Shown here piece after piece: positions 5,867-64,000 of a DNA stretch of 64,000 bases. Every line of letters begins with the position of its first letter. Within the stretch, counting starts at the first letter, position 1. The notes beneath the pieces are model-generated. The model did not search any database. It was given only the letters and a program-made list of their open reading frames with translations, and had not been told where the DNA came from. The stretch lies in NCBI GenBank assembly GCA_037143135.1, contig JBAWZH010000001.1:9553-73552 (forward strand), written 5' to 3'. This DNA is from a bacterium. Its GTDB lineage: Bacteria; Verrucomicrobiota; Kiritimatiellia; CAIKKV01; CAITUY01. A program made the position numbers and the translations under genes.

Positions 5867-6768
5867 GGCAACGCGCTGAAAGTGATACAAGCAGTTTTTA
5901 CCTGCTGCTTGACATGATGTGCAACGCATTTGGTGGCATAGTATTCATAGGCTTGCTAATTGCTATCCTGTCTAGCTCCATGAGTCGTCAGGATGCAGAA
6001 AAAAAGAGTAACAGCAGTCGAAACCTCGACAAGGTTGAACAGAAATTAGAGGCTGAACGCCTTGCTAGAGAGCAACAAGAACTTACAGCAGCTCAGAGAC
6101 ATTTGGAAGAAACGTTAAGAAAGATTAAGGGGCCATCTGGGGCAAGTCCAGCAACTGATCTTGCTTCTTTGATCTGTAGCAATGGATTATTACAATCTGC
6201 CTGTGATGCTCTTGCCGCTTCTAACTCATTGATATCTGTTTCAATTTTCGACTCCGAAACATCGATTGAGTTAAATTCAACATCAGCAGCCGACGTTGAA
6301 AAGCAAATCACCCGACTTCGTGCGGATCTTTTACAAAAGCAGGAGGCGTCCAAGGAGACGTTGAGATTACCGCGAGAACATCCTGTTACAGGCAAAAACG
6401 CCGCGTTTATCGGAATTAAGGATGGAAAGTTATATGCGATAAGTAATGTGTCAGGATCTCGTCCGCGTAACTACGACCGTGAGGATGTTGATGTCGAAAG
6501 TGGCCCAGGACGGGACGTGGTCGAGTTACGTAAAAACAGAGGGCAGTTCATTAAGCGGGGTTGCGAAGATGAGGGTAAGTTCGCACAGGCGCTCGCAAGT
6601 TTGAATAGTCATTACGAATTTGTGTCATTTGCAGTGTCTACTAATTCATTTGCTGAGTTTAATTATGTGAAAGCTATTTTTGTCGGGCATGGATTCTTAT
6701 ACAACTGGGTCGTCACAGAGGGAGCCATTGAAATTGTGGTTCAGGATGAACCACTCCGTGTTCAGTGA
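5863..6768 (+). CDS. Second ExbD/TolR-like single-TM protein with coiled-coil insert
   Basis: GTG 5863 overlaps the upstream stop (GTGA), with GGGAAGG 8 nt upstream. The TM segment SFYLLLDMMCNAFGGIVFIGLLIAIL has an Asp at the helix edge. A coiled-coil-like region follows, then a C-terminal alpha/beta domain (AAFIGIKDGKLYAISN ... EFVSFAVSTNSF). Confidence 0.4.
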   Translation: MRQRAESDTSSFYLLLDMMCNAFGGIVFIGLLIAILSSSMSRQDAEKKSNSSRNLDKVEQKLEAERLAREQQELTAAQRHLEETLRKIKGPSGASPATDLASLICSNGLLQSACDALAASNSLISVSIFDSETSIELNSTSAADVEKQITRLRADLLQKQEASKETLRLPREHPVTGKNAAFIGIKDGKLYAISNVSGSRPRNYDREDVDVESGPGRDVVELRKNRGQFIKRGCEDEGKFAQALASLNSHYEFVSFAVSTNSFAEFNYVKAIFVGHGFLYNWVVTEGAIEIVVQDEPLRVQ

Positions 6769-6769
6769 G

Positions 6770-7903
6770 TTATTGATGGAAAGAGCGGGCGATCAACATC
6801 ATTAGGCGTAATTCCTCTTCGGTATAAGCGGCAAGTCGAATAAAAGAATTCGCGTTTTCGGTAAACGATTTCACGCGATCCGCCATAATACCTCTAATGA
6901 CTTGCTCATTTGACATACTTCGATCCCAAGCGCGCGCGGATCCCTCGAGAATTGCACAAAGTGATGCGTGTATAGATTCATTCTTGCGGACAATGTGTAG
7001 ATTGCTCTCCATAGTGATGTTCAGTGTGTGTTCGAGTTGATCCCAAGGTTGGGAATGACCCGTGGATCGTGTGCCTTTGCGCCCTATTAGCATAAATGCA
7101 CGTCCAGTCACATAAGCAGCATCACATGCGCCCTCAACATTGGATGGGCGAATGGCGGATAACTTATCAGCAAGGGAGGGAGATGCTGACATTTCACTTT
7201 CTGTCTGGGACGCGACTACAACCGTTACGTCTGCAAGGAGTCGACTGTAACTGGCTATTGCAGATGAATAGTACGGTGCATCTTCTTGTGCGTATATAAG
7301 TTCCATTTGTTTCTGTATTTTATTAGCCAGATTTGTTGAGTCGGCCACATTGGCGCTCTTCAAAAGAATTACCTGTACCTTTATGGATTGTTTGATTGCG
7401 TTCATAATGCGCTGATAAACACTAGTATCGGGCATCTCTAGATATGCGTTATGATCGTGCTCAATTCGCGTCAACTCTTCGATTCGTTCGCTATTGTCCA
7501 GATCTGATGTGTTTGAGGTGACCTTTCTTACTGCTGAGGCATTATCCATAGGTGTACGAACAGTTGAATTTGTGATGGATTCTACTCCATTAGGGAATTG
7601 ACTCGTCTCTGGGGAAACATTCTCAGGGTGCACTTCGGTCGATGTTTTGCCACTGGATGTGTTTGTTAGATTGGGGCTTGTATCTTTACTTGGATCGCTT
7701 GGTTCTTGCTTCCCTCCTGTGTAGTATTTGACACCTGTAAAGACAGCAAATAGAAGCCCTATAACGGTGATGATGATGATGCTGATGAGAAATAGGTTTG
7801 GAGCCGAGCTATTGCGATCCGGCTTCTTTGTGCTAAGCAGTTCTCTGGGAATACGTGGTGGCCTGGGTGGTGTCAGAGATTGGGTATATTTCTTGTCACT
7901 CAT
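6770..7903 (-). CDS. Hypothetical single-TM anchored protein
   Basis: 377-aa ORF with a basic/Pro-rich N-terminus, TM helix LFLISIIIITVIGLLFAVFTGV, an S/T/N-rich linker and a helical C-terminal domain. No family recognised. Confidence 0.5.
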   Translation of the reverse strand: MSDKKYTQSLTPPRPPRIPRELLSTKKPDRNSSAPNLFLISIIIITVIGLLFAVFTGVKYYTGGKQEPSDPSKDTSPNLTNTSSGKTSTEVHPENVSPETSQFPNGVESITNSTVRTPMDNASAVRKVTSNTSDLDNSERIEELTRIEHDHNAYLEMPDTSVYQRIMNAIKQSIKVQVILLKSANVADSTNLANKIQKQMELIYAQEDAPYYSSAIASYSRLLADVTVVVASQTESEMSASPSLADKLSAIRPSNVEGACDAAYVTGRAFMLIGRKGTRSTGHSQPWDQLEHTLNITMESNLHIVRKNESIHASLCAILEGSARAWDRSMSNEQVIRGIMADRVKSFTENANSFIRLAAYTEEELRLMMLIARSFHQ

Positions 7904-7966
7904 TCGAAACCTTTTGCCATCAAATTGTTGACGATCAGAAAATCGCGACCGTAGTGGGGTGGTGTC

Positions 7967-8506
7967 TCACTTTCGGATTGTCGACTTCTTCCCTTGATTT
8001 GGTTGCATCCTTGAGTTTCCCGTAAGTTTGCTCTCGCCGATTATTGGATAGAGAAATGCGGACACTTGAGCGGTTGTAGCAGTAGATGCGATGCCCGATG
8101 CTCGAATCGAAACTGGGGGTTGACCAGGCCTATCAACTGTGTAGTTCCCGCCGCTGGATTGCCGGACATAGATAGGCAGTTTCCCTGGCGTGTTGATAGT
8201 GGCACCACCACCAGATGACGGTCTAATGGTGACTGGTAGCTGCCCAGGCATCGACACCGTCGAGCCCCCTCCCGATACTGGCCTCACGTAGGTCGGCAAT
8301 TGCCCTGGGGTGCTGATTATTGCGCCTCCACCTTGATTAGGCCTTACAGAGATGGGTAGCTCACCCGGCCTATTGATCGTTACTCCACCTCCCTGTGCAG
8401 TCCTCACATAGGTCGGAAGCTTGCCGGGTTCTTGAATAATGTAGGATTGAGCTTCTACTGATAATGCGCAGACGAGAAGTGCCAGAATGAAAACTATATT
8501 TTTCAC
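7967..8506 (-). CDS. Secreted protein with tandem 20-aa PGxLPxxVR-x3-GGG repeats
   Basis: Signal peptide MKNIVFILALLVCALSVEA/QS. It has five full copies and one partial copy of PG(K/E/Q)LP(T/I/V)x(V/I)Rxxx(G/S)GGxx(I/V)xx. Confidence 0.6.
   Translation of the reverse strand: MKNIVFILALLVCALSVEAQSYIIQEPGKLPTYVRTAQGGGVTINRPGELPISVRPNQGGGAIISTPGQLPTYVRPVSGGGSTVSMPGQLPVTIRPSSGGGATINTPGKLPIYVRQSSGGNYTVDRPGQPPVSIRASGIASTATTAQVSAFLYPIIGESKLTGNSRMQPNQGKKSTIRK
8090..8428 (-). repeat. In-frame 60-bp tandem repeat array inside CDS 7967..8506
   Basis: Positions derived from protein residues 27 to about 139, which form consecutive 20-aa units. Boundaries are approximate. Confidence 0.6.
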
Positions 8507-8555
8507 AGGGAGGGAGCATCCTTCCGATTTAGGATTATGGATGATATTGACCCAG

Positions 8556-9095
8556 TTAGCTATTCAAATTCAGGCACACGGGGCAAGCACGGGGCAGATC
8601 CAGATCCTTAAACTGTTTGAAAACAATTCGAATGGATGCCTTGCTTTGTGGTGTGCGTTCCCTGTCGATCAAGGGATCTTGTTGCATTCGCCAGATTGAC
8701 TCATAACGCAGACTACCAAACCGAATTTCAAATGTTATGTCGGTGACGAAATGTAAACCGTTTGCGACATTCTCTAGCAATTGCTCGAGTCTATGTTTTT
8801 CTTTTGAGTTGGCGGTGGTGACTTTTCGCAACAGTTCCATGGCCTCTTGTTTTGCGATGTCATCTGCTACCATGTGTGAATTGTGACACAGCGCGGACAA
8901 TGGCGTTTCAGGAAGATCAACCTGTCCGCCACGACAACACATGACAAGATATGGCATCAAATCAGGGTTACTGTCTGCAATCGGTTGGAATAACCGTGAA
9001 GCTGTACGAATGGCGAGAGCCAATTCGTCCCAACATAAAACGTCCTTTTTCTCTTCTGATACCGGGATGATTTGTCCTGTATTCTCGTCATTCAT
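8556..9095 (-). CDS. Hypothetical protein
   Basis: 179-aa ORF with balanced composition. No motif recognised. Confidence 0.4.
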   Translation of the reverse strand: MNDENTGQIIPVSEEKKDVLCWDELALAIRTASRLFQPIADSNPDLMPYLVMCCRGGQVDLPETPLSALCHNSHMVADDIAKQEAMELLRKVTTANSKEKHRLEQLLENVANGLHFVTDITFEIRFGSLRYESIWRMQQDPLIDRERTPQSKASIRIVFKQFKDLDLPRACPVCLNLNS

Positions 9096-9169
9096 ATGAA
9101 TAGTCTAGGGGCTGCTGGTTCGCACGACCATGGGAGCATCAGGGAACAAACGGGATAATCTGGGATCAT

Positions 9170-9652
9170 TCATCGCGGTCTGTACGTGCGGATAAAATTC
9201 ACCAGATCAGATCCTGTCTTGACGATGACGCGCTTTACCGAGCGTCCAAATGCAATTTGCGCATTCGGAAATACTAGAACCGATACGATCCAGGGTTTCC
9301 TCCTGAATAACTGCTCAGTTATGCTCCGTATCCACCGGATGCCCCGGTTGATCTGTGAAATGGGGTTGGAGGAAAAGCGATGGCGGTTGATTAAAAGATG
9401 TTTTCCGTCCCAGGTAACATTCCCCTCATGCGACTTGGTTTCAATGAGGAATATGATGCCATCGGGACGAACAACTACATGATCCAGATTGCCATAAGGA
9501 TATGGCACATTATTCAGTATGAGGCAACCATCTGAGAGAAGGGGTGTCAGCAACCTGCAGATTTCTTGTTCTGCCACCACCCATCGGGCGTTCTCTGTGC
9601 GACTTTCTCGATCATAAGTGGTTTTGCCACGGACGGTGTCTTTCTGAACCAT
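9170..9652 (-). CDS. NERD (nuclease-related) domain protein
   Basis: The core GNLDHVVVRPDGIIFLIETKSHEGNV matches the NERD D...E-x-K pattern. Confidence 0.6.
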   Translation of the reverse strand: MVQKDTVRGKTTYDRESRTENARWVVAEQEICRLLTPLLSDGCLILNNVPYPYGNLDHVVVRPDGIIFLIETKSHEGNVTWDGKHLLINRHRFSSNPISQINRGIRWIRSITEQLFRRKPWIVSVLVFPNAQIAFGRSVKRVIVKTGSDLVNFIRTYRPR

Positions 9653-9743
9653 TTCTCATGAAGGAATCATCTACTTATAAAACTTTCGGATAAACAATCA
9701 GCATACCGAAACATTCAAATACTCCCCTTCGCATCCCTACGGG

Positions 9744-10133
9744 ATGAGTGATTATCATTATCAAACAGGCCGACGGCCTGAGTACAAATCTCGCATGGAA
9801 CGCCAAATCGGGGATTACTTGGCCAGCCGTCGCATTCCTTTCATCTATGAAAAACCGACGGCTGTTATAGATTCAGGCAAACTTAAAGTCTGGTATCCCG
9901 ACTTTAGTCTCAAATATGGCCTGATCATTGAATATTTTGGCATTACCGGAGACCCCCAATATCTCGCTAGTGCCCGGCACAAGCTTCGCGTCTATCATGA
10001 GAACCAGTTCGACGTGATCCCGCTATACCCCGCAGACATCGTGCCTGAATGGGAAAACAACCTTATGCATCGAATGGACACGGTGCTGGAGGGGCGGCTT
10101 CAGGATATTCGGTCGTGCTCCTTGATCGGCTGA
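9744..10133 (+). CDS. Hypothetical protein, possible PD-(D/E)XK-fold nuclease-like
   Basis: The VWYPDFSLKYGLIIEYFG arrangement (PD ... E) is reminiscent of restriction-endonuclease-fold cores, but the Lys of ExK is not evident. Confidence 0.35.
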   Translation: MSDYHYQTGRRPEYKSRMERQIGDYLASRRIPFIYEKPTAVIDSGKLKVWYPDFSLKYGLIIEYFGITGDPQYLASARHKLRVYHENQFDVIPLYPADIVPEWENNLMHRMDTVLEGRLQDIRSCSLIG

Positions 10134-10272
10134 ATAATGTCTCCCGATTTATCCCCGAGCATCCCATAAACCACCCATTAAATCCCTCATCCACCCATAT
10201 ATCGGAACTCATGTTTTGTGAGATCGTATTTCTGGGGAAGAGAAAGGTTGAATAGCAAAAAGGAGAGACAAT

Positions 10273-56677: not shown

Positions 56678-57427
56678 TTGAGACCTGAGACGCATTTTGC
56701 CGATTGGAGGGAGTTCGAGGACTACGTCTATGGCTTACTTCTTACCGCCAAGCCTGCGCTCGCACATCGCAATCTCGCTGTCCACAAACACAGACGGATG
56801 CGCGGGAACCGCACAACATGGACGATTGACGTGGAGTACGAACTTGATGTGCTTGGCATCAGGCATGTCGTCTTGGTTGAGTGCAAGTACTTCGCTCGCA
56901 AGGTCACACGACGGGAAGCCTCCTATCTCCTCGCGTGTGTGCAGGATGTCGGAGCGGCCAAAGGCATTCTCGTTAGCAATCAAGGGTTCACGGCTGGGGC
57001 TAGGGAAGTCGTTGCCGCCTCGCCCGTTCTTCTCCTTCAAGTCCCGGAGTTGTTCGGGATCTTGGAGGCTGATTTGCTTGTGTCCCTGAAGAAACGGCTC
57101 TTCCGCGACATAATCGACATGCGCGACGAGGCAATCTGGGTGCCAAAGGTTCGCGGCTTTGGCGGTGACCACGGGAGGTTCGTCGAGATTCAGAGTGAAC
57201 TGAGTCAGTACGTGGACTTCCCCCATCGCTTCCCTTTGCCCCTCGCCTTCAGCCGCCTCCAACTCGATGGACAGGATTCTGCGCCCATCAAGATCAGCAG
57301 CAAACTTGAATACGTCCTAACAGTGATTGACAACATCGCCGAGGTCAGGAAGCAGTACGGCGATAGGTACGGCTTCGCTGGATGTGAATACACGCAACAG
57401 CAGGAAGCACAAGAGCAGAGAGCCTAA
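56678..57427 (+). CDS. Mrr-like (restriction endonuclease fold) protein
   Basis: WTIDVEYELDVLGIRHVVLVECKYFARKVTRREASYLLACVQDVGAAKGILVSNQGFT shows the D ... E-x-K core of the Mrr_cat type. TTG start. Confidence 0.6.
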   Translation: MRPETHFADWREFEDYVYGLLLTAKPALAHRNLAVHKHRRMRGNRTTWTIDVEYELDVLGIRHVVLVECKYFARKVTRREASYLLACVQDVGAAKGILVSNQGFTAGAREVVAASPVLLLQVPELFGILEADLLVSLKKRLFRDIIDMRDEAIWVPKVRGFGGDHGRFVEIQSELSQYVDFPHRFPLPLAFSRLQLDGQDSAPIKISSKLEYVLTVIDNIAEVRKQYGDRYGFAGCEYTQQQEAQEQRA

Positions 57428-57694
57428 CAAAAGTACGGAAGGTATGGCGCTCCCCTGCGCTCCACGCCAACCTTCACGCTATTTGTACCTCGCCCACTCA
57501 GGTTATAAGGAGCATTTGCCGATCGTGAGGACACTGATTCCTGAGTTAATGATGTTAGAGGTTTTGCCCAACTATATTATCCTGATCCTGGCGATTCCTT
57601 CTTGATGCTCCCACCCGGCGGTGACACTCATGTGGGTTCGGTTCATGGAAACCTTTATATACTGCTCCACCTTCTCTACCCCGAGGTGAAGCCA

Positions 57695-57886
57695 ATGGGA
57701 AAAGGAAGACCGTCGAAATGTCCACACTGCAAGAAATCCGCAAGAAGTATATCCAAGGGGTTCAAATACCGTGCTCATGGAAAAGCTAAGGATCGGAAAT
57801 GTTGCAACTGCGGTAAAAGATATCTGGTTGAAGTGAAGCCGGGCATACATCGTGTGTGCCCGTCTCACGACTGTATGTCCGATTGA
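57695..57886 (+). CDS. Small zinc-ribbon protein
   Basis: CPHCKK ... CCNCGKRY gives two CxxC pairs. GAGGTG RBS before ATG 57695; the ORF-track start is 57602. Confidence 0.4.
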   Translation: MGKGRPSKCPHCKKSARSISKGFKYRAHGKAKDRKCCNCGKRYLVEVKPGIHRVCPSHDCMSD

Positions 57887-57898
57887 GAATACCTCTGG

Positions 57899-58219
57899 GT
57901 GGTGTCATGTCAGATGAAGAAAAACGATGAAGGGATCCAGAAGTTAATCGCAGAATTGCGTTTGTTATACGGAAAAGTTCGGGGGGAACGCGAGTTCCTC
58001 GCGCTTAAAAAGTCAGAGCTCCGGCCGGGTGATGAAATCTCGTTCTTTGGTTTCATACAAGCGCGGGAGCAGTTGGCGTGTGAGACATCATTACTGACCG
58101 GCCATGCGATCCTGGTCCAGGAGATCATTGCCAGGAAGAAGATCGTGGTTCCTGCGGCTGATCAGCGTTTTCTAAAGGAGATCAACGCCCTTTCTTGGAT
58201 GTATATATCCCGCATCTAA
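57899..58219 (+). CDS. Hypothetical protein
   Basis: 106-aa ORF with helical composition. Confidence 0.35.
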   Translation: MVSCQMKKNDEGIQKLIAELRLLYGKVRGEREFLALKKSELRPGDEISFFGFIQAREQLACETSLLTGHAILVQEIIARKKIVVPAADQRFLKEINALSWMYISRI

Positions 58220-58299: not shown

Positions 58300-58887
58300 A
58301 TGGCAAACTATTCATTTATGACCGATCAAGGTTGGCGGGTTACGGAATACCGTCCATTCAGCCCAAGCTATGCGGTTTTGCATACGCCGGGAATGAAGGA
58401 GGAACGCAAATCCGCCTATGCAACTGCATTGTATTCTCATAGTGAGACAACCAATCTGGCGCCGGATGAAAACTCATCAGGGGACTTGCTCAAAACTCTC
58501 ACAGGCCAACAATTGAAGTTCGATTATTTCTCGGAGGATGTGCTGAAACAATTGCTCAAAGAGCGGGTGACTATACGCGACAGGAACCGTGCCGCGATCC
58601 AAGGCCGGCTTTCGGATCTTTCGGGCGAAATATACGGAGCAGTAATACTCAAAACACCCGATGGGGATAAACGCAGGCAGGGCTTGGAAAAGACCAAGAT
58701 GGATCTTGAAAAACAACTTCGCGACGAAGATGTTACGCTCTGGAAGGATGCCGTCGAACTTAGACGGGAACTCATTATTGCTGCCAAGAAATATGAAGGC
58801 ACAAAACTCAGGACCGGACTATTTGCTATGCCGCTGACTCAGGATGACCAACATAAAATCGAAGGATACGGTAACTTTTCAGGATAG
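58300..58887 (+). CDS. Hypothetical protein with coiled-coil C-terminal half
   Basis: ATG 58300 chosen because ORF-track start 58195 overlaps the previous ORF. Its 3' end overlaps the ATPase gene by 44 nt. Confidence 0.4.
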   Translation: MANYSFMTDQGWRVTEYRPFSPSYAVLHTPGMKEERKSAYATALYSHSETTNLAPDENSSGDLLKTLTGQQLKFDYFSEDVLKQLLKERVTIRDRNRAAIQGRLSDLSGEIYGAVILKTPDGDKRRQGLEKTKMDLEKQLRDEDVTLWKDAVELRRELIIAAKKYEGTKLRTGLFAMPLTQDDQHKIEGYGNFSG

Positions 58888-60514
58888 ATGCATCGCGCTT
58901 CGCCCAATTCTGGGGAAACAGGTCGATCAGATATGGCAATGCTACCTTTTTCAGGATGAAGATGGAAAATTCGAACTAGAGCAACAGCTTGAGCTCATGG
59001 TCAATTCGGCACTGAATACCGATGTGCAGGATAAAGCCCCAGTCTTTCCGCCGCCAACCGCCGAGGTTGCCGCCGGGGAGATTGCCCTCGGTGATGTCGA
59101 ATATAATCATAAGCCATATTGTCCCTTCGGGCTCAGGAAAGACGAACTGATGAAGCACGTCGGGCTCTTTGGTCAAACCGGTACCGGTAAAACCAATGCC
59201 GCCCATCTTCTGGCCTCCCAAATTCACAAACTGGGCACTCCGATCTGGGTGCTTGAATTCAAAAGGGGTTGGAGGGAATTGCGAGCATTGCCGGAATTCC
59301 AGGATTTATTGGTATTTACCGTCGGGCGTAATGACATTGCCCCCATTTCTTTCAACCCGCTCATCCCGGTGGAGGGCGTGGACCCGCATACATGGATAAA
59401 GAAGATCTCCCACACAATTTCCAACGCGTTCTTTCTCGGGCAGGGAGTTCTCTATTTGCTGGAGGTTGTTTTGGCAAAGCTATACGAGGAATATGGGATC
59501 TTTGAGGGTAAACCGGAGCGATATCCCACATTTCGGGATGTCTTGCGAATGCTGCAGAATTACCCGATCCGAAGTGGTAGGGAAACCCTTTGGCTGTCCT
59601 CAGCGCTAAGGGCGATACATTCGCTGTGTTTTGGCCAGATGGACCGGATTGTTAATGCCCAGGGAAATGACAGTCTCAAATCCCTGATCAATCATTCTGT
59701 CGTTTTTGAAATGGACTCCCTTGGCCATGAGGACAAGGTTTTCTTCACCGAATGTGTCATGCTCTGGGCCTATGAATATTACCAGGCGAGGCCGGTTAGG
59801 GAACAACTCCAACTGGTGATGTTCCTTGAGGAGGCCCATAACATCGCCGGGCGACAGGGACGGGATGATTCCGGGTCTAAGATCATTGTGGATCAGATGT
59901 TCCGTCAGAGCCGTGAATATGGGATTGGATTGGTCATCATAGACCAGATGCCCTCCGCCATCTCGCGTACGGCCCTGGCCAATGTGCATTGCCTCATCGC
60001 TATGGGTGTAAAAGAGAAGGCGGATGCCGTGGCTTTGACAGGTTCCATGCTGTTGGATCGGGAGCAGGGCGACATGCTCGGGCGACTCAGTCTGGGATCC
60101 GCGATTGTTAAGTTGCAGCGAAAGGGGCTGATTGATCCCTTTATCTTGAAGACCCCCTTGATGCCAGTGAAGAAGGGAACTATGTCGGATGATATGATCC
60201 GGGATATGATGCAGGTATATGTCCGGCCCGTTGAACATTCTGGAGAGGCATCCCATTCGACTTCTCAGCCGAAACTCTCGGAATCAGAAATGGCACTATT
60301 GGTGGATGTGGCGATCATGCCCGACTCCGGCGTGGTGGCGCGATATACAAGATGCAAACTGTCCGGCCGACAGGGCGACAAGGCCAAACGATCCCTGATA
60401 GAAATGGGATTCATCGAGGAAGTTGAACAGCTTACCCCAAGGGGGCGTTCAAAAATGATTCGGCTTACCGAAAAAGGAACGAGTTTTCTGGAAGCCAGGC
60501 CATCTGAAATATAA
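58844..60514 (+). CDS. HerA/FtsK-superfamily (DUF87-like) P-loop ATPase with C-terminal winged-helix
   Basis: VGLFGQTGTGKTNAAHLLA (Walker A), LVMFLEEAHNIAG (Walker B), and C-terminal wHTH-like LSGRQGDKAKRSLIEMGFIEEVEQLTPRGRSKMIRLTEKG. Confidence 0.7.
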   Translation: MTNIKSKDTVTFQDRCIALRPILGKQVDQIWQCYLFQDEDGKFELEQQLELMVNSALNTDVQDKAPVFPPPTAEVAAGEIALGDVEYNHKPYCPFGLRKDELMKHVGLFGQTGTGKTNAAHLLASQIHKLGTPIWVLEFKRGWRELRALPEFQDLLVFTVGRNDIAPISFNPLIPVEGVDPHTWIKKISHTISNAFFLGQGVLYLLEVVLAKLYEEYGIFEGKPERYPTFRDVLRMLQNYPIRSGRETLWLSSALRAIHSLCFGQMDRIVNAQGNDSLKSLINHSVVFEMDSLGHEDKVFFTECVMLWAYEYYQARPVREQLQLVMFLEEAHNIAGRQGRDDSGSKIIVDQMFRQSREYGIGLVIIDQMPSAISRTALANVHCLIAMGVKEKADAVALTGSMLLDREQGDMLGRLSLGSAIVKLQRKGLIDPFILKTPLMPVKKGTMSDDMIRDMMQVYVRPVEHSGEASHSTSQPKLSESEMALLVDVAIMPDSGVVARYTRCKLSGRQGDKAKRSLIEMGFIEEVEQLTPRGRSKMIRLTEKGTSFLEARPSEI

Positions 60515-60698
60515 CAGGCCGGCGAAGAGAGAGTGCGCCGTTTACGTCGAGGTGTTAATGCCTTCACATCAGGATTCATCATTGTTGTCACGCAACAACA
60601 ACAACAAAAACTTTTTAAAGAAAAGAAGAAGAAGAGAAGAGGTTCACTGCTCACATTACTGGATGATCTGACTCATCTGACGCGTTCAGCGCACTCTC

Positions 60699-61796
60699 TT
60701 ACTGGAACCGGGCGGAAAAGACGGCGCTCAGTTCCTCGGGTGAGACTAATGGCTCAATCCTGTTTGTAAAGGTCCGATCTACTTTGGCGCTGACCAGCAG
60801 GATCAGGCCAAGGGATGCCAAGTATCCCAGGGTTGAATAGAATTGTGTGTAACCGTAGGGTTCCTCCCCGCAAGCCCGACTCAGGGTGCTATAATGCTGA
60901 TACACCGACTTCACCAGTTTTGAAGACTCTTCCATGCTTGCCTTAAGAATGAGGAGCGCCTTGTCATTGGTACCCACCAGGACATCTTTCACCACATCTT
61001 CCCGTGCCTTGGCAAAACACTCATCCACGGTTGGAGCCTCCCCGGTGGAACAGTAAAGGAGGGCCTTGATGGCGACCCTGACATCGCCGTTTGTATTCTT
61101 GGCCGTCATGGCGGCGATTTCTTCCAACAACCCAGGAGCAACCCTCTTTAGGCCTGTCTCTGCCCGGTCTTTCAGGATGTCTAGGATCTCACTGGCTGAG
61201 TAGGTTCTGAATGATATGACTTCTGGCTGGAGTGAGGAGCGAGTGCTCTCATCCAGTTGCTTAAGGTAGCGGTGGTTATTGCTGAGGAGGACCAGGGAAT
61301 AGCGGTTGGGGCTTCGGCTCAGGAAGTACAGGATATCCCGCTTGAGGTCATTTTCGACCAGCATGTCGGCCTCGTCGAGGACGATGACCGCCGGGCCGGG
61401 GATTTCCTTCTCGAATCGTTCGCATAGCTCGGAATAGGCGTACCCCCGCGGCTTGGCTTTCAAGATGGCGGCCAATGCCTTAAAGCTGGAATTATGGATC
61501 CGGCAATTCACGCCAAAGAAGGGGAGTTTTAGCTTTTCAGAAAAGGCTTTTTCAAGGTACCGAAATGTCAGGGTTTTCCCGCAACCCCTGGCACCGAATA
61601 CCATCATGTTTCGGGCAATCCCGCTACCCTGATAGCGGACCAGGCAGTCCACAATCCGTTTAACTTCAGGCCGAATGACCGGCCGGTCCGGGATGTGGTC
61701 GAAGCTGAAAACCCGGAAGTCCTTTACACTGGATGCGACGCGTTCAGCCTCCTGACGCGACTGCTCAATGTATGCCAATAACTCTTCCTGACCCAT
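60699..61796 (-). CDS. Orc1/Cdc6-type AAA+ protein with C-terminal winged helix
   Basis: FDHIPDRPVIRPEVKRIVDCL, MMVFGARGCGKTLTFRYL (Walker A), AVIVLDEADML (Walker B), ISFRTYSASEILDILKDRA, TNGDVRVAIKALL, and the wH-like YTQFYSTLGYLASLGLILLV. Confidence 0.8.
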   Translation of the reverse strand: MGQEELLAYIEQSRQEAERVASSVKDFRVFSFDHIPDRPVIRPEVKRIVDCLVRYQGSGIARNMMVFGARGCGKTLTFRYLEKAFSEKLKLPFFGVNCRIHNSSFKALAAILKAKPRGYAYSELCERFEKEIPGPAVIVLDEADMLVENDLKRDILYFLSRSPNRYSLVLLSNNHRYLKQLDESTRSSLQPEVISFRTYSASEILDILKDRAETGLKRVAPGLLEEIAAMTAKNTNGDVRVAIKALLYCSTGEAPTVDECFAKAREDVVKDVLVGTNDKALLILKASMEESSKLVKSVYQHYSTLSRACGEEPYGYTQFYSTLGYLASLGLILLVSAKVDRTFTNRIEPLVSPEELSAVFSARFQ

Positions 61797-62145
61797 TCTC
61801 TTTTGACGTATTCACCTCACTCTTCAAGATGAATCGAAGTTAATAAACCTTTCGCTTTCTTGCTGAAATGGTGGCCAAAATAATTAATTTCCATACTTCT
61901 CATTATCCCCCCTCTCTCCTCAAAATTAATTAATCTCATTACAAATCAACAACTTACACAACAAAATCAATTCACATCATAAAATCAATACTCGTCGTCA
62001 CACGTCGTCGTCCCGTCGTCACGCGAACGCCAAAGCGACCGCGCACTCCCTTACTTCCACACCCTATCTTTCATCTCCCTGCCCCCAGAAATCATTACCA
62101 ATAACATCCCCAGATTCCCATCATTACACATCATAACTTCAATAC

Positions 62146-62294
62146 TCGTCGTCGTCCGTCGTCGTCCGTCGTCGTCCGTCCGTTCGTCCGTCCGTTCGTC
62201 CGTCCGTTCGTCCGTCGTCCGTTCGTCCGTCCGTTCGTCCGTCCGTTCGTCCGTCGTTCGTCCGTCCGTCGTCCGTCGTCCGTCCGTCGTCCGT
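62146..62294. repeat. Tandem 10-mer/12-mer repeat tract (CGTCGTCCGT x3, then CCGTTCGTCCGT x3 + CGT + x3, then degenerate copies)
   Basis: Read directly from 62146-62294. A related CTCGTCGTC...CGTCGTCGTC...CGTCGTC patch lies at about 61990-62020, and TCAATACTCGTCGTC occurs at about 61985 and about 62139. Confidence 0.85.
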
Positions 62295-62448
62295 TACTAT
62301 AAATATGGCACCCGCAGGTGCCCTTTACTTTCGTCTCCGTTATATCATCCATCCGTAGGCGTATCCGAGGCCTCCATCAGCGCGCCGTAGCGCGCCTATC
62401 TCCATTTGCCCAAAGTTGGCCCCGCCAACCTGATATTTGGACAAGCTG

Positions 62449-62607
62449 TTATCCGCTAACAGCGATTCTTCCGCTTGCCTCCAATACCTCTCTTGCTCGA
62501 TTAACGAGCCAAAGATTATCTGTTTTCTTCACTGAAGCCGCTTCGGCTTCCTGAATCATATCTTTGACAAGCTTCAAGAGCTCTTTGAGTCGCTTTGTGT
62601 CTTCCAT
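62449..62607 (-). CDS. Small helical hypothetical protein (52 aa)
   Basis: ATG at 62607 has AAAGGAGGTG 8 nt upstream, which favours this start over ORF-track start 62640. A hairpin GTTGGC-GGG-GCCAAC followed by TTT lies just downstream (62415-62429). Confidence 0.4.
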   Translation of the reverse strand: MEDTKRLKELLKLVKDMIQEAEAASVKKTDNLWLVNRAREVLEASGRIAVSG

Positions 62608-62640
62608 TCTCTGAGCACCTCCTTTTACTGATTTTTCCAT

Positions 62641-63289
62641 GCCGGAGGCCGCGGGCTTCGATAGATAAATTTTTCGGTTACCGCAGTGACCGAAAGATTT
62701 ACTGAGCGAAGCCTGCTTCGTTCGGGAAAAATCAGGGAGGTGCGAAGCCAGAAATCACACAATGCGGCAAACGAGCGCCGCTTGTCTTTTCGGCTTCCTT
62801 GCCTTCCTGGTTCCCTTATAGATAGTTGCCCGCGCGCGTATTCATAACCGCCCGCAGGCGGCTAACGTTAGGGGTGGGCGAAGCCCCCTCGCATTAGCGT
62901 GCCGCAGCACGCCTAGATTTCGTCGTCAGTCGTCATATGCGCGCCGCAGCGCGTCTATCATTTCCCCTTCGGTCGAAGACCGAAATCCGGGTCCCGTTCC
63001 CTGACACGGGCTCACAATGCCATTCAAATGACCGTGTCATTTCATAAGCGCCCTCTGGAGCCAGATTCAGAGCGGTACCTCGAATCTGGTGACGAGCGGC
63101 AGCGGATCACCGAACGGACCGAAAGCCATTGGGTTGAGGTTGAGTGTCCGTTACCCTCCCACGAAACCTCCCCTTGGGTTTCGTGTCCGGAGGACAATTC
63201 GTCCCCCATCTTCCCTTCATCCATCTCTCGCTATATCCCTAAACAAGACAACGCCCCGACGGGGGCCCGTCAAGGCGTCGCTTGTTTCC
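62641..63289 (-). ncRNA. Candidate large structured RNA or structured leader (strand uncertain)
   Basis: A roughly 650-nt stretch without a credible ORF contains at least 10 stable hairpins, several with conserved CGCA loops on different stems. See findings. No Rfam family recognised by eye. Confidence 0.3.
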
Positions 63290-63811
63290 TTACCAGCTTA
63301 TGCAAGGGTAGGGCTTCAGCCCCTCTTTCTGTTTCCTGATTCCCAATTCAAAGAAACTGTACACAGAATCCAACCACGATACCGCCCACCTGAACTCGTC
63401 AATTTCGCTGGTTTTTATCCAGCCACCTTCCGGGACTGTATTCCTGATAACCTGCAAAATGGCTTCTGCCGTTGTTTTCTGGTTCTGAAGCACCTCCTGC
63501 TGCTGACTTTCACTTTCAAAGGGTTCATTTCTGGCCACACTTACCAGATACCGGCATCCAATTTCGTTTAGCCGTTCAAAGTTTCCCTCAAAGTCATATT
63601 CATCCGTAGACCCCTCGGCCCAATACTTTTCGGGGAATAGCACTCTCAAGATATGCTCCTCAAGAACCATACTGATACTTGTTCTCAAATACCCATCTTC
63701 GCCAGCATCAATAGCCCATCCGGTAAACTGAGCTTTCTGCTCCTCCTCTGTCTTTGTATCCCATTCGAGATAAACATCCGTTCCCATTTTTTCATTCAAA
63801 CCTCCTTTCAA
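63290..63811 (-). CDS. Hypothetical acidic protein
   Basis: 173-aa ORF with protein-like composition. TTG 63811 overlaps the upstream stop (TTGA). The alternative in-frame ATG at 63787 lies 13 nt after GGAGG. Confidence 0.45.
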   Translation of the reverse strand: MKGGLNEKMGTDVYLEWDTKTEEEQKAQFTGWAIDAGEDGYLRTSISMVLEEHILRVLFPEKYWAEGSTDEYDFEGNFERLNEIGCRYLVSVARNEPFESESQQQEVLQNQKTTAEAILQVIRNTVPEGGWIKTSEIDEFRWAVSWLDSVYSFFELGIRKQKEGLKPYPCISW

Positions 63812-63987: not shown

Positions 63988-64000
63988 TGTTCTTCATCAC

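Follow-up and report, generated by a model that had tools for sequence, protein, structure and literature searches.

A full-length Orc1/Cdc6-type protein at the core of integrative mobile elements in bacteria

Initiators of the Orc1/Cdc6 family are held to be an invention of archaea and eukaryotes, with MCM as their partner; bacteria initiate replication with DnaA and, on plasmids, with Rep proteins. Replicons of mobile genetic elements (MGEs) that rely on Orc1/Cdc6 are known already, from archaea. Actinomycete integrative and conjugative elements (AICEs; pSAM2, SLP1) combine a tyrosine integrase, a dedicated initiator and a single FtsK-like translocase with a winged helix-turn-helix (wHTH) that recognises short repeats. 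Archaeal integrated MGEs (iMGEs) and integrative and conjugative elements, for instance the iMGEs of Thaumarchaeota, encode, besides a tyrosine recombinase, a homologue of Cdc6/Orc1 whose presumed task is to recruit the replisome of the host. The haloarchaeal pleolipovirus SNJ2, which integrates with a tyrosine integrase, encodes the Orc1/Cdc6 homologue Orf8, which responds to DNA damage and starts a cascade leading to integrase expression. Among the Thermoplasmatales plasmids pPO1 (Picrophilus oshimae) and pTA1 (Thermoplasma acidophilum), no single-stranded intermediates were found for pPO1, theta replication was inferred with Cdc6 as the proposed initiator, and the intergenic DNA immediately before cdc6, AT-rich and with tandem repeats, resembles an archaeal origin (PMC3177234). 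Finally, mobile neighbourhoods joining an Orc/CDC6-clade ATPase to HerA/FtsK and wHTH proteins have been predicted to act in defence as 'capture' systems (Krishnan et al., NAR 2024; PMC10853773). Here we describe an orc1/cdc6 homologue (orc, encoding Orc) in a 64,000-nt stretch of a Kiritimatiellia contig (JBAWZH010000001.1), referred to as the window. The gene is a core component of integrative, non-viral mobile elements with variable cargo that are spread through bacteria of the Planctomycetes-Verrucomicrobia-Chlamydiae (PVC) group. What is new is a conserved backbone of this kind across bacterial phyla, with a HerA-type ATPase as partner.

The orc gene encodes a bona fide Orc1/Cdc6-type AAA+/winged-helix protein, and the full-length architecture attributed to it in a preliminary description of the locus was confirmed by profile and structure searches alike. 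In an NCBIfam model search, Orc matched TIGR02928 (orc1/cdc6) with E=3.6e-37 and 128.1 bits, a score that we weigh below, and its Pfam matches were AAA_22, a weak Cdc6_lid and, at residues 286-356, a weak Cdc6_C winged helix. A family profile built from 16 diverse homologues retrieved Sulfolobus Orc1-1 (2qby_A; E=8e-35, residues 32-340). The same alignment was fed to AlphaFold (AF2), giving a model with a mean pLDDT of 90 whose best PDB matches in Foldseek were the archaeal Orc1/Cdc6-DNA complexes 2v1u, 1fnn and 2qby, over the full length (E~4e-18). Its lid-to-winged-helix transition is contiguous, without an inserted domain. Walker A (GARGCGKT), Walker B (VLDEAD), sensor 1 (LLSNN) and the sensor-2 arginine (GDVRVAIK) are kept across the 16 members. 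A PLSDB search with Orc returned 252 plasmid records in which the organisms named are archaea throughout, mostly haloarchaea. The best match by a wide margin was pPO1 Cdc6 (33% identity over 350 aa, E=2e-54), with other archaeal plasmid Orcs at 25-27%, and in a phage collection SNJ2 Orf8 was the sole match (24% identity over 61% of the protein).

Homologues of Orc make up more than 200 protein clusters (226+). A genome scan yielded 80 loci, designated here by L numbers, nearly all on contigs of metagenome-assembled genomes (MAGs) from PVC bacteria. The labels of these contigs are Kiritimatiellae, Verrucomicrobiota, Victivallales/Lentisphaerae, Phycisphaerae/Sedimentisphaerales and Pirellulales; a few records are labelled otherwise, Nitrospirae among them. 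Some loci sit on contigs of 1.17 and 5.6 Mb, from which we conclude that orc is chromosomally integrated in bacteria, so that the bacterial context claimed at the outset is secure, and several MAGs hold two to three orc copies. The databases give proteins of the family automatic names only, and the full-text literature searches of this analysis found no paper on this bacterial family. Across several PVC phyla, hundreds of bacterial protein clusters encode a full-length Orc1/Cdc6 that is part of a conserved mobile-element backbone and whose closest counterpart is the initiator of an archaeal plasmid.

To define this backbone, we searched all loci by tblastn with the window proteins and clustered all locus open reading frames (ORFs); linkage was counted in the 28 loci that are fully flanked (at least 8 kb on each side of orc). 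The gene of a HerA/FtsK-superfamily ATPase lies within 7 kb of orc in 24 of them, and within 600 bp in half of these (12 of 24). A coiled-coil protein is encoded in 20 of the 28; none of its 60 homologues has a Pfam domain, and its AF2 model consists of an N-terminal beta hairpin and a long helical hairpin, without an enzyme fold. Recombinases of the same family as the short tyrosine recombinase of the window were found in 11 of the 28 loci, and they are 56-72% identical in loci whose Orc is at 45-64% identity. At L044, 17-bp direct repeats bracket a 19.7-kb unit that contains integrase, orc and HerA genes; such flanking repeats were seen in L044 only, and neither in the other loci nor in the window, where the far end of the element lies beyond position 64000. 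The co-occurrence of recombinase, ATPase and coiled-coil protein, the MAGs with multiple copies and the 17-bp repeats at one locus led us to classify the unit as an integrative mobile element. A viral nature was considered and rejected, since IMG/VR contains no relative of Orc and PHROG matches were generic only. The preliminary description had proposed the replication module of an integrated element: its foreign and integrative character stands, with the presumed pPO1 initiator as nearest characterised relative of Orc, while the role it gave to a tandem array as origin repeats does not.

Among Planctomycete loci synteny is strong, in the order integrase, DUF2958, ThiF cassette, HTH protein, Orc, coiled-coil protein and ATPase. 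The cassette, found upstream of orc in L016, L018, L025, L029, L030, L034, L041 and L086, encodes a DUF2958 protein, a ThiF-family protein, a small protein, a Cys-rich protein and one further protein, of which Pfam supports DUF2958 and ThiF only; we take it to be reminiscent of the PRTRC-type ThiF-related cassettes of conjugative elements. Cargo varies: CBASS in L001, a single-stranded DNA-binding protein (SSB) and RadC in L003, and in the window an Mrr-like restriction endonuclease (REase) with an SPFH protein. The Mrr_cat gene (56678-57427) recurs only in L097, a near-identical element, and in none of the other loci.

We compared the locus with the described systems. The plasmids pPO1 and pTA1 resemble it in a Cdc6 of equal size (363 aa) that is 33% identical over its full length, and in an AT-rich tandem-repeat region directly upstream of cdc6; pPO1 has in addition a COG0433 HerA/FtsK-like ATPase (Pfam DUF87/AAA_10) and a site-specific recombinase. 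Since initiator, HerA-like pump, recombinase and AT-rich repeat region upstream are present in both pPO1 and the window, they have a module logic in common. On the other hand, pPO1 is a free 7.6-kb plasmid of an archaeal host with MCM, not an integrated element; its recombinase is of the serine type and that of the window of the tyrosine type; its ATPase has no significant pairwise similarity to the window ATPase; and its repeats are AT-only, as opposed to the ACGG/ACGA array of the window. Thaumarchaeota-type iMGEs are likewise integrative, yet their hosts are archaea and no obligatory HerA-like partner has been described for them. SNJ2 Orf8, too, is an Orc1/Cdc6 homologue carried by an MGE that integrates and has a tyrosine integrase, but SNJ2 is a virus, and its three-gene regulatory module was not recognised in the window element. 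AICEs follow an equal module logic, and the nearest plasmid matches of the window ATPase are actinobacterial DUF87 proteins, although identity to these is 25-28% and AICE initiators are of the RepSA or RepAM type. An archaeal origin of the whole backbone was rejected on the grounds of these ATPase matches and of an integrase without any plasmid match; within the backbone, judging by sequence similarity, only Orc is specifically archaeal-plasmid-like. By pure inference, the window element might have a transfer function.

Upstream of orc, two kinds of conservation are apparent, one across the family and one within the subclade formed by the window, L007 and L094. Most of the 73 loci listed have, ~35-50 nt before the orc ATG, a TATA-like box (TTTATAAA, TATTAAATA or TATAAATA) preceded by a purine-rich GAAAG; the strict search pattern is matched in 29 of the 73. 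A motif of the type TTTAT(G/A)CGT comes after this box and, in Planctomycete loci, often upstream of it too. As TTTAT[AG]CG[TC], it occurs 87 times in 2.2 Mb, with 20 of these occurrences no more than 150 nt upstream of orc starts. The subclade has in addition the GC box TTCGCGGTC..GCGTTCGCGTG, UGCG/UACG hairpins, a nearly C-free AT-rich tract of ~100 nt and the promoter box. Two copies of the GC box are found in L007 (9465-9501 and 9685-9720) and one in L094 (3346-3380), and it is absent from more distant loci. Conservation makes the TTTAT(G/A)CGT and TTCGCG boxes candidate Orc sites. The promoter region itself (window 61840-61852, and most loci listed between L001 and L086) resembles an archaeal B recognition element (BRE)/TATA arrangement kept from Kiritimatiellae to Planctomycetes; the box may simply be a -10-like element, but that it is kept in several phyla is striking.

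The composition of the upstream DNA is unusual, as the preliminary description had remarked. The AT-rich region that it placed at 61800-62000 turned out to be the lowest-GC 200-nt window of the 64 kb (61801-62000; 0.33 against a mean of 0.495, sd 0.048), and on the plus strand of 61880-62300, 53 of 57 G lie within CG. The density of non-CpG G there is 0.01 (window mean 0.186, sd 0.032), a value unique on either strand; the extreme form of this CpG-only pattern is partly due to the array, and it is weaker in relatives. Strand-specific deamination of cytosine was tried as its cause and found unsupported by the changes relative to L007 (C>T 12, G>A 20, T>C 10, A>G 10). The repeat that the preliminary description saw twice at a distance of ~155 bp was recovered as a pair of 48-nt direct repeats, 85% identical and 154 nt apart, and its tandem array near 62146-62294 by Tandem Repeats Finder (TRF) at 62149-62295. 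AT-rich tract, G depletion and array are each the most extreme of their kind in the 64 kb. Alignment shows that the AT-rich tract is no accident of this window, a C-poor counterpart being kept in L007 and L094, and an origin-like architecture is possible there. The earlier proposal that the tract is part of an origin is to this extent upheld; among more distant loci, such a tract is not the rule.

These data led us to a reading in which Orc, as a core protein of PVC integrative elements, acts as replication initiator at its own upstream region, with the array no part of its site set; we give it a probability of about 0.5. The initiator role itself is plausible. In the mechanism that we propose, the recombinase would excise the element, and Orc would bind its own upstream region at the TTTAT(G/A)CGT motif beside the TATA-like box and, in the window subclade, also at the TTCGCG-type GC box. 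Orc would then melt the adjacent C-depleted AT-rich tract, and replication of the excised element would start at or near this tract. Since bacteria are not known to have MCM, the helicase is proposed to be host DnaB or the linked HerA-like ATPase; alternatively, the ATPase and its coiled-coil partner might move element DNA for segregation or transfer. We hold only tentatively the stronger proposition that a widespread family of PVC elements replicates via an archaeal-plasmid-type Orc1/Cdc6 without MCM, the initiator being rewired to load DnaB or the element's own HerA/FtsK-type ATPase in a cross-domain transplant of initiator-origin logic. On that view, a putative new structured RNA and a series of C(UNCG)G hairpins further upstream (described below) may belong to the control region of the element.

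Several points weigh against an initiator role. MCM is the only known client of Orc1/Cdc6, and we would expect it to be lacking from bacteria, PVC hosts included. When the neighbouring gene clusters were scanned against Pfam, no replicative helicase, primase or polymerase family appeared and nothing MCM-like, and none of the loci examined showed a circular-contig signature. The motifs at the orc promoter, TTTATGCGT and the TATA-like box, could be plain promoter or operator elements. In most Planctomycete loci an origin would have little space, another gene being situated 300-450 nt upstream of orc. The TIGR02928 score of Orc is lower than the curated cut-off of that model (181.3 bits); pPO1 Cdc6 is level with Orc at 127.4 bits, and a sub-threshold score equalled by that of a plasmid Cdc6 leads us to see the window Orc as a divergent, MGE-type branch. 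Lastly, the origin and initiator assignments for pPO1 are themselves predictions, for which its authors say that experiments are still needed (PMC3177234).

The array was at the centre of the preliminary description, which took its 10/12-bp units for origin repeats. Together with the 155-bp-spaced repeats, it could represent iterons or sites like archaeal origin recognition boxes (ORB), forming an origin with the AT-rich tract: array, tract and initiator gene lie next to one another, an arrangement also seen in pPO1 and at archaeal origins, and a GACGACG seed beside the GC box is common to L007 and L094. We consider this very improbable. When the 800 nt preceding orc were run through TRF for all loci, the array was found at none of the other homologues (70+), where repeats are short, at chance level and never array-like, and it is missing even from the loci with 94% identical Orcs (L007, L094-L096), which would be expected to share DNA specificity. 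The array unit occurs in no other element's locus and on no IMG/VR contig. Over 9.3 kb, L097, an independent metagenome contig with an identical Orc, has no mismatch to the window; the sole change is a 27-nt indel inside the array (176 nt in L097 versus 149 nt in the window; window 62188-62244, L097 5500-5650), a difference that, to the detriment of our argument, short-read assembly of a 150-nt repeat could partly account for. The preliminary description had tied its proposal to repeats kept beside homologues, and those of the array are neither kept nor constant in length. With a sub-period of 4 nt and nothing but A, C and G, they are typical of slippage and unlike iterons of 18-22 bp. In L007 and L094 the corresponding position, between GC box and hairpin, holds only the GACGACG seed; given this and the length difference in L097, alignment identifies the array as a recent, slippage-prone and lineage-specific expansion of that seed, not a conserved set of initiator-binding repeats. 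Part of the array flank is duplicated in the window. The gene and the foreign element are real and of interest, and the array is the least meaningful part of the locus.

Two further explanations retain the conserved trio and give Orc another task. The preliminary description had itself named an AAA+ protein co-opted for another role as its alternative, and this may yet apply. Orc could be the transcriptional switch of the element, as Orf8 is in SNJ2, with the promoter motifs as its operators. SNJ2 provides a precedent in an integrated MGE, Orf8 is the only phage-collection match, the family-wide DNA motif is promoter-proximal and orc-specific, and in several Planctomycete loci (L015, L020 and L026) the integrase gene lies directly upstream of orc on the same strand. 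We nevertheless judge a switch unlikely: similarity to Orf8 is partial as compared with the full-length match to plasmid Cdc6, the SNJ2-like partners orf4 and orf7 were not recognised, and the tightest and most frequent linkage of orc is to a DNA-pumping ATPase, not to the integrase. Somewhat less likely still is that the trio serves in defence against invaders, Orc, coiled-coil protein and HerA-like ATPase together making up a module of the 'HerA/FtsK capture' type, carried as island cargo. Coupling of an Orc/CDC6-clade ATPase to a HerA/FtsK ATPase and a wHTH is as found in the neighbourhoods proposed to be defensive (PMC10853773), the window ATPase matches the PADLOC models HerA, mad8 and DndH, and defence genes abound in both the window and L001 (KAP NTPase, SNF2, ResIII, Mrr-like REase, CBASS). 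However, the inactive-REase insert between AAA+ and wHTH that defines those systems is absent from the window Orc, which is a 365-aa, contiguous Orc1/Cdc6 fold with marginal PADLOC matches only. Neither is there a conserved active nuclease nearby, the Mrr_cat gene being confined to the window and L097, and the third protein is a coiled coil. Moreover, the trio shares synteny, as an element backbone, with integrase and genes of plasmid type (DUF2958, ThiF cassette, SSB, RadC).

If Orc does initiate replication in these elements, it would show an initiator switching its helicase partner across domains, and it would provide a missing replicon type for genetically intractable PVC bacteria, e.g. 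for vectors for Planctomycetes or Kiritimatiellae. If it does not, the family would be a clean case of Orc1/Cdc6 exaptation. The features of the window element are collected in Table 1.

Table 1. Features of the orc-bearing element, by position in the window.
Feature	Coordinates	Strand	Evidence
Short tyrosine recombinase, 246 aa	54255-54995	(-)	Pfam Phage_integrase E=7.6e-23; best NCBIfam model XerA_Arch
Two small conserved element genes (94 aa, Cys-rich; 106 aa)	57602-58219	(+)	tblastn matches in L001, L003, L007, L009, L012-L014
Coiled-coil protein, ~195 aa; gene overlaps start of ATPase gene	58300-58887	(+)	60 homologues; AF2 model
HerA/FtsK-superfamily ATPase, 556 aa, C-terminal wHTH; convergent with orc	58844-60514	(+)	Pfam DUF87 + HerA_C; NCBIfam CedD E=2.6e-25; PADLOC HerA
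Orc1/Cdc6-family AAA+ protein, C-terminal winged helix, 365 aa	60699-61796	(-)	Profile, structure and sequence matches
Promoter-like region of orc: GAAAGG-TTTATTAA box 61840-61847; GTGAATACGT 61806-61815	61806-61847	(-)	Conserved in family
AT-rich tract, ~100 nt, no C on orc-sense strand, bounded by TTTTGGCC and GTGAATTGATTT	61877-61975	(-)	GC minimum; aligns with C-poor AT-rich tracts of L007, L094
48-nt direct repeat, copy 1, GACGACGAGTATTGA..TTATGATGTG on orc-sense strand	61966-62013	.	Repeat search, family D5
GC-rich box GCGCGGTCGCTTTGGCGTTCGCGTGACGACG, two TTCGCG-type half sites	62014-62046	(-)	Common to L007, L094
48-nt direct repeat, copy 2, runs into array	62120-62167	.	Repeat search, family D5
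Tandem array, ACGG/ACGA units on orc-sense strand, periods 4, 12, 39	62149-62295	.	TRF; lineage-specific, length-polymorphic
GC hairpin GGCACC-UGCG-GGUGCC, first of five C(UNCG)G hairpins	62307-62322	(-)	Hairpin scan; terminator-like
Conserved structured non-coding element, ~160 nt, two helices, upstream of hairpin series	63032-63200	(-)	Alignments A3-A5
Conserved 173-aa protein of no assigned function, travels with structured element	63290-63811	(-)	tblastn matches in L007, L012, L013

Beyond the array, a hairpin scan detected five C(UNCG)G hairpins within 650 nt (62307-62953) on the orc-sense strand and none elsewhere in the 64 kb. The first of them is identical in L007. C(UGCG)G and C(UACG)G hairpins with covarying stems, again on the orc-sense strand, are present in L007 (9403-9737) and L094 (2645-3390), and three of those in the window lie within a 26-nt repeated unit (62375, 62892 and 62934). 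That their orientation is fixed and their stems covary points to a single-stranded (RNA) role, as opposed to protein-binding palindromes. Within this stretch lies a 63-aa helical ORF (62449-62640, minus strand) with a long palindrome (TTGCCCAAA..TTTGGGCAA) and a UGCG hairpin on its flanks; since this module is present twice in L094 (2403-2597 and 2882-3075), the small gene is probably real. By comparison, a 73-aa ORF across the array (62131-62352) was judged spurious, being almost all repeat and common to no other element.

Further upstream, the structured element is a candidate new RNA (or single-stranded DNA) motif of these elements, as suggested by its alignments: pairing holds in 96.8% of cells, compensatory changes occur at 13 of 36 pairs, and none of 500 shuffles reaches the observed values. 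It matches no Rfam family, and scans of the window for tRNA and Rfam families returned nothing. Further copies are found in L007 (9176-9334), L012 (10974-11132), L013 (15985-16142), L014 (13927-14084), L089, L090 and L091, located after a homologue of the 173-aa protein (p173) or before the p230-ATPase operon, and always directed into the orc/ATPase block. Its covariance model gave no match in Planctomycete loci or in the L001, L003, L009 and L010 clades, which is why we do not count it as a universal core part; it is confined to a Kiritimatiellae/Lentisphaerae subclade. Complementarity between the array units and a conserved segment of this element is probably a low-complexity coincidence. 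The gene of the 173-aa protein is followed, after its stop codon, by a strong terminator-like hairpin.

Outside the element proper, positions 1-53000 of the window resemble a defence or conflict island, with GC steps between ~45% and 55%. Its genes encode a PrsW protease, an SNF2 helicase, a KAP P-loop NTPase, an AAA ATPase and a ResIII helicase with a TnsA-like endonuclease domain, and a Ser/Thr kinase gene adjoins those of a 971-aa Sel1-repeat protein and of an Hsp70-like protein of 832 aa. Within the ATPase, residues 497-548 match a PHROG regulator. At L024, four successive ORFs of the tyrosine-recombinase family (6157-10210) stand beside the Orc homologue. In the window, the convergent gap between the stop codons of the ATPase gene and orc (60515-60698) is of low complexity, with (CAA)n and then (GAA)n-type purine tracts.

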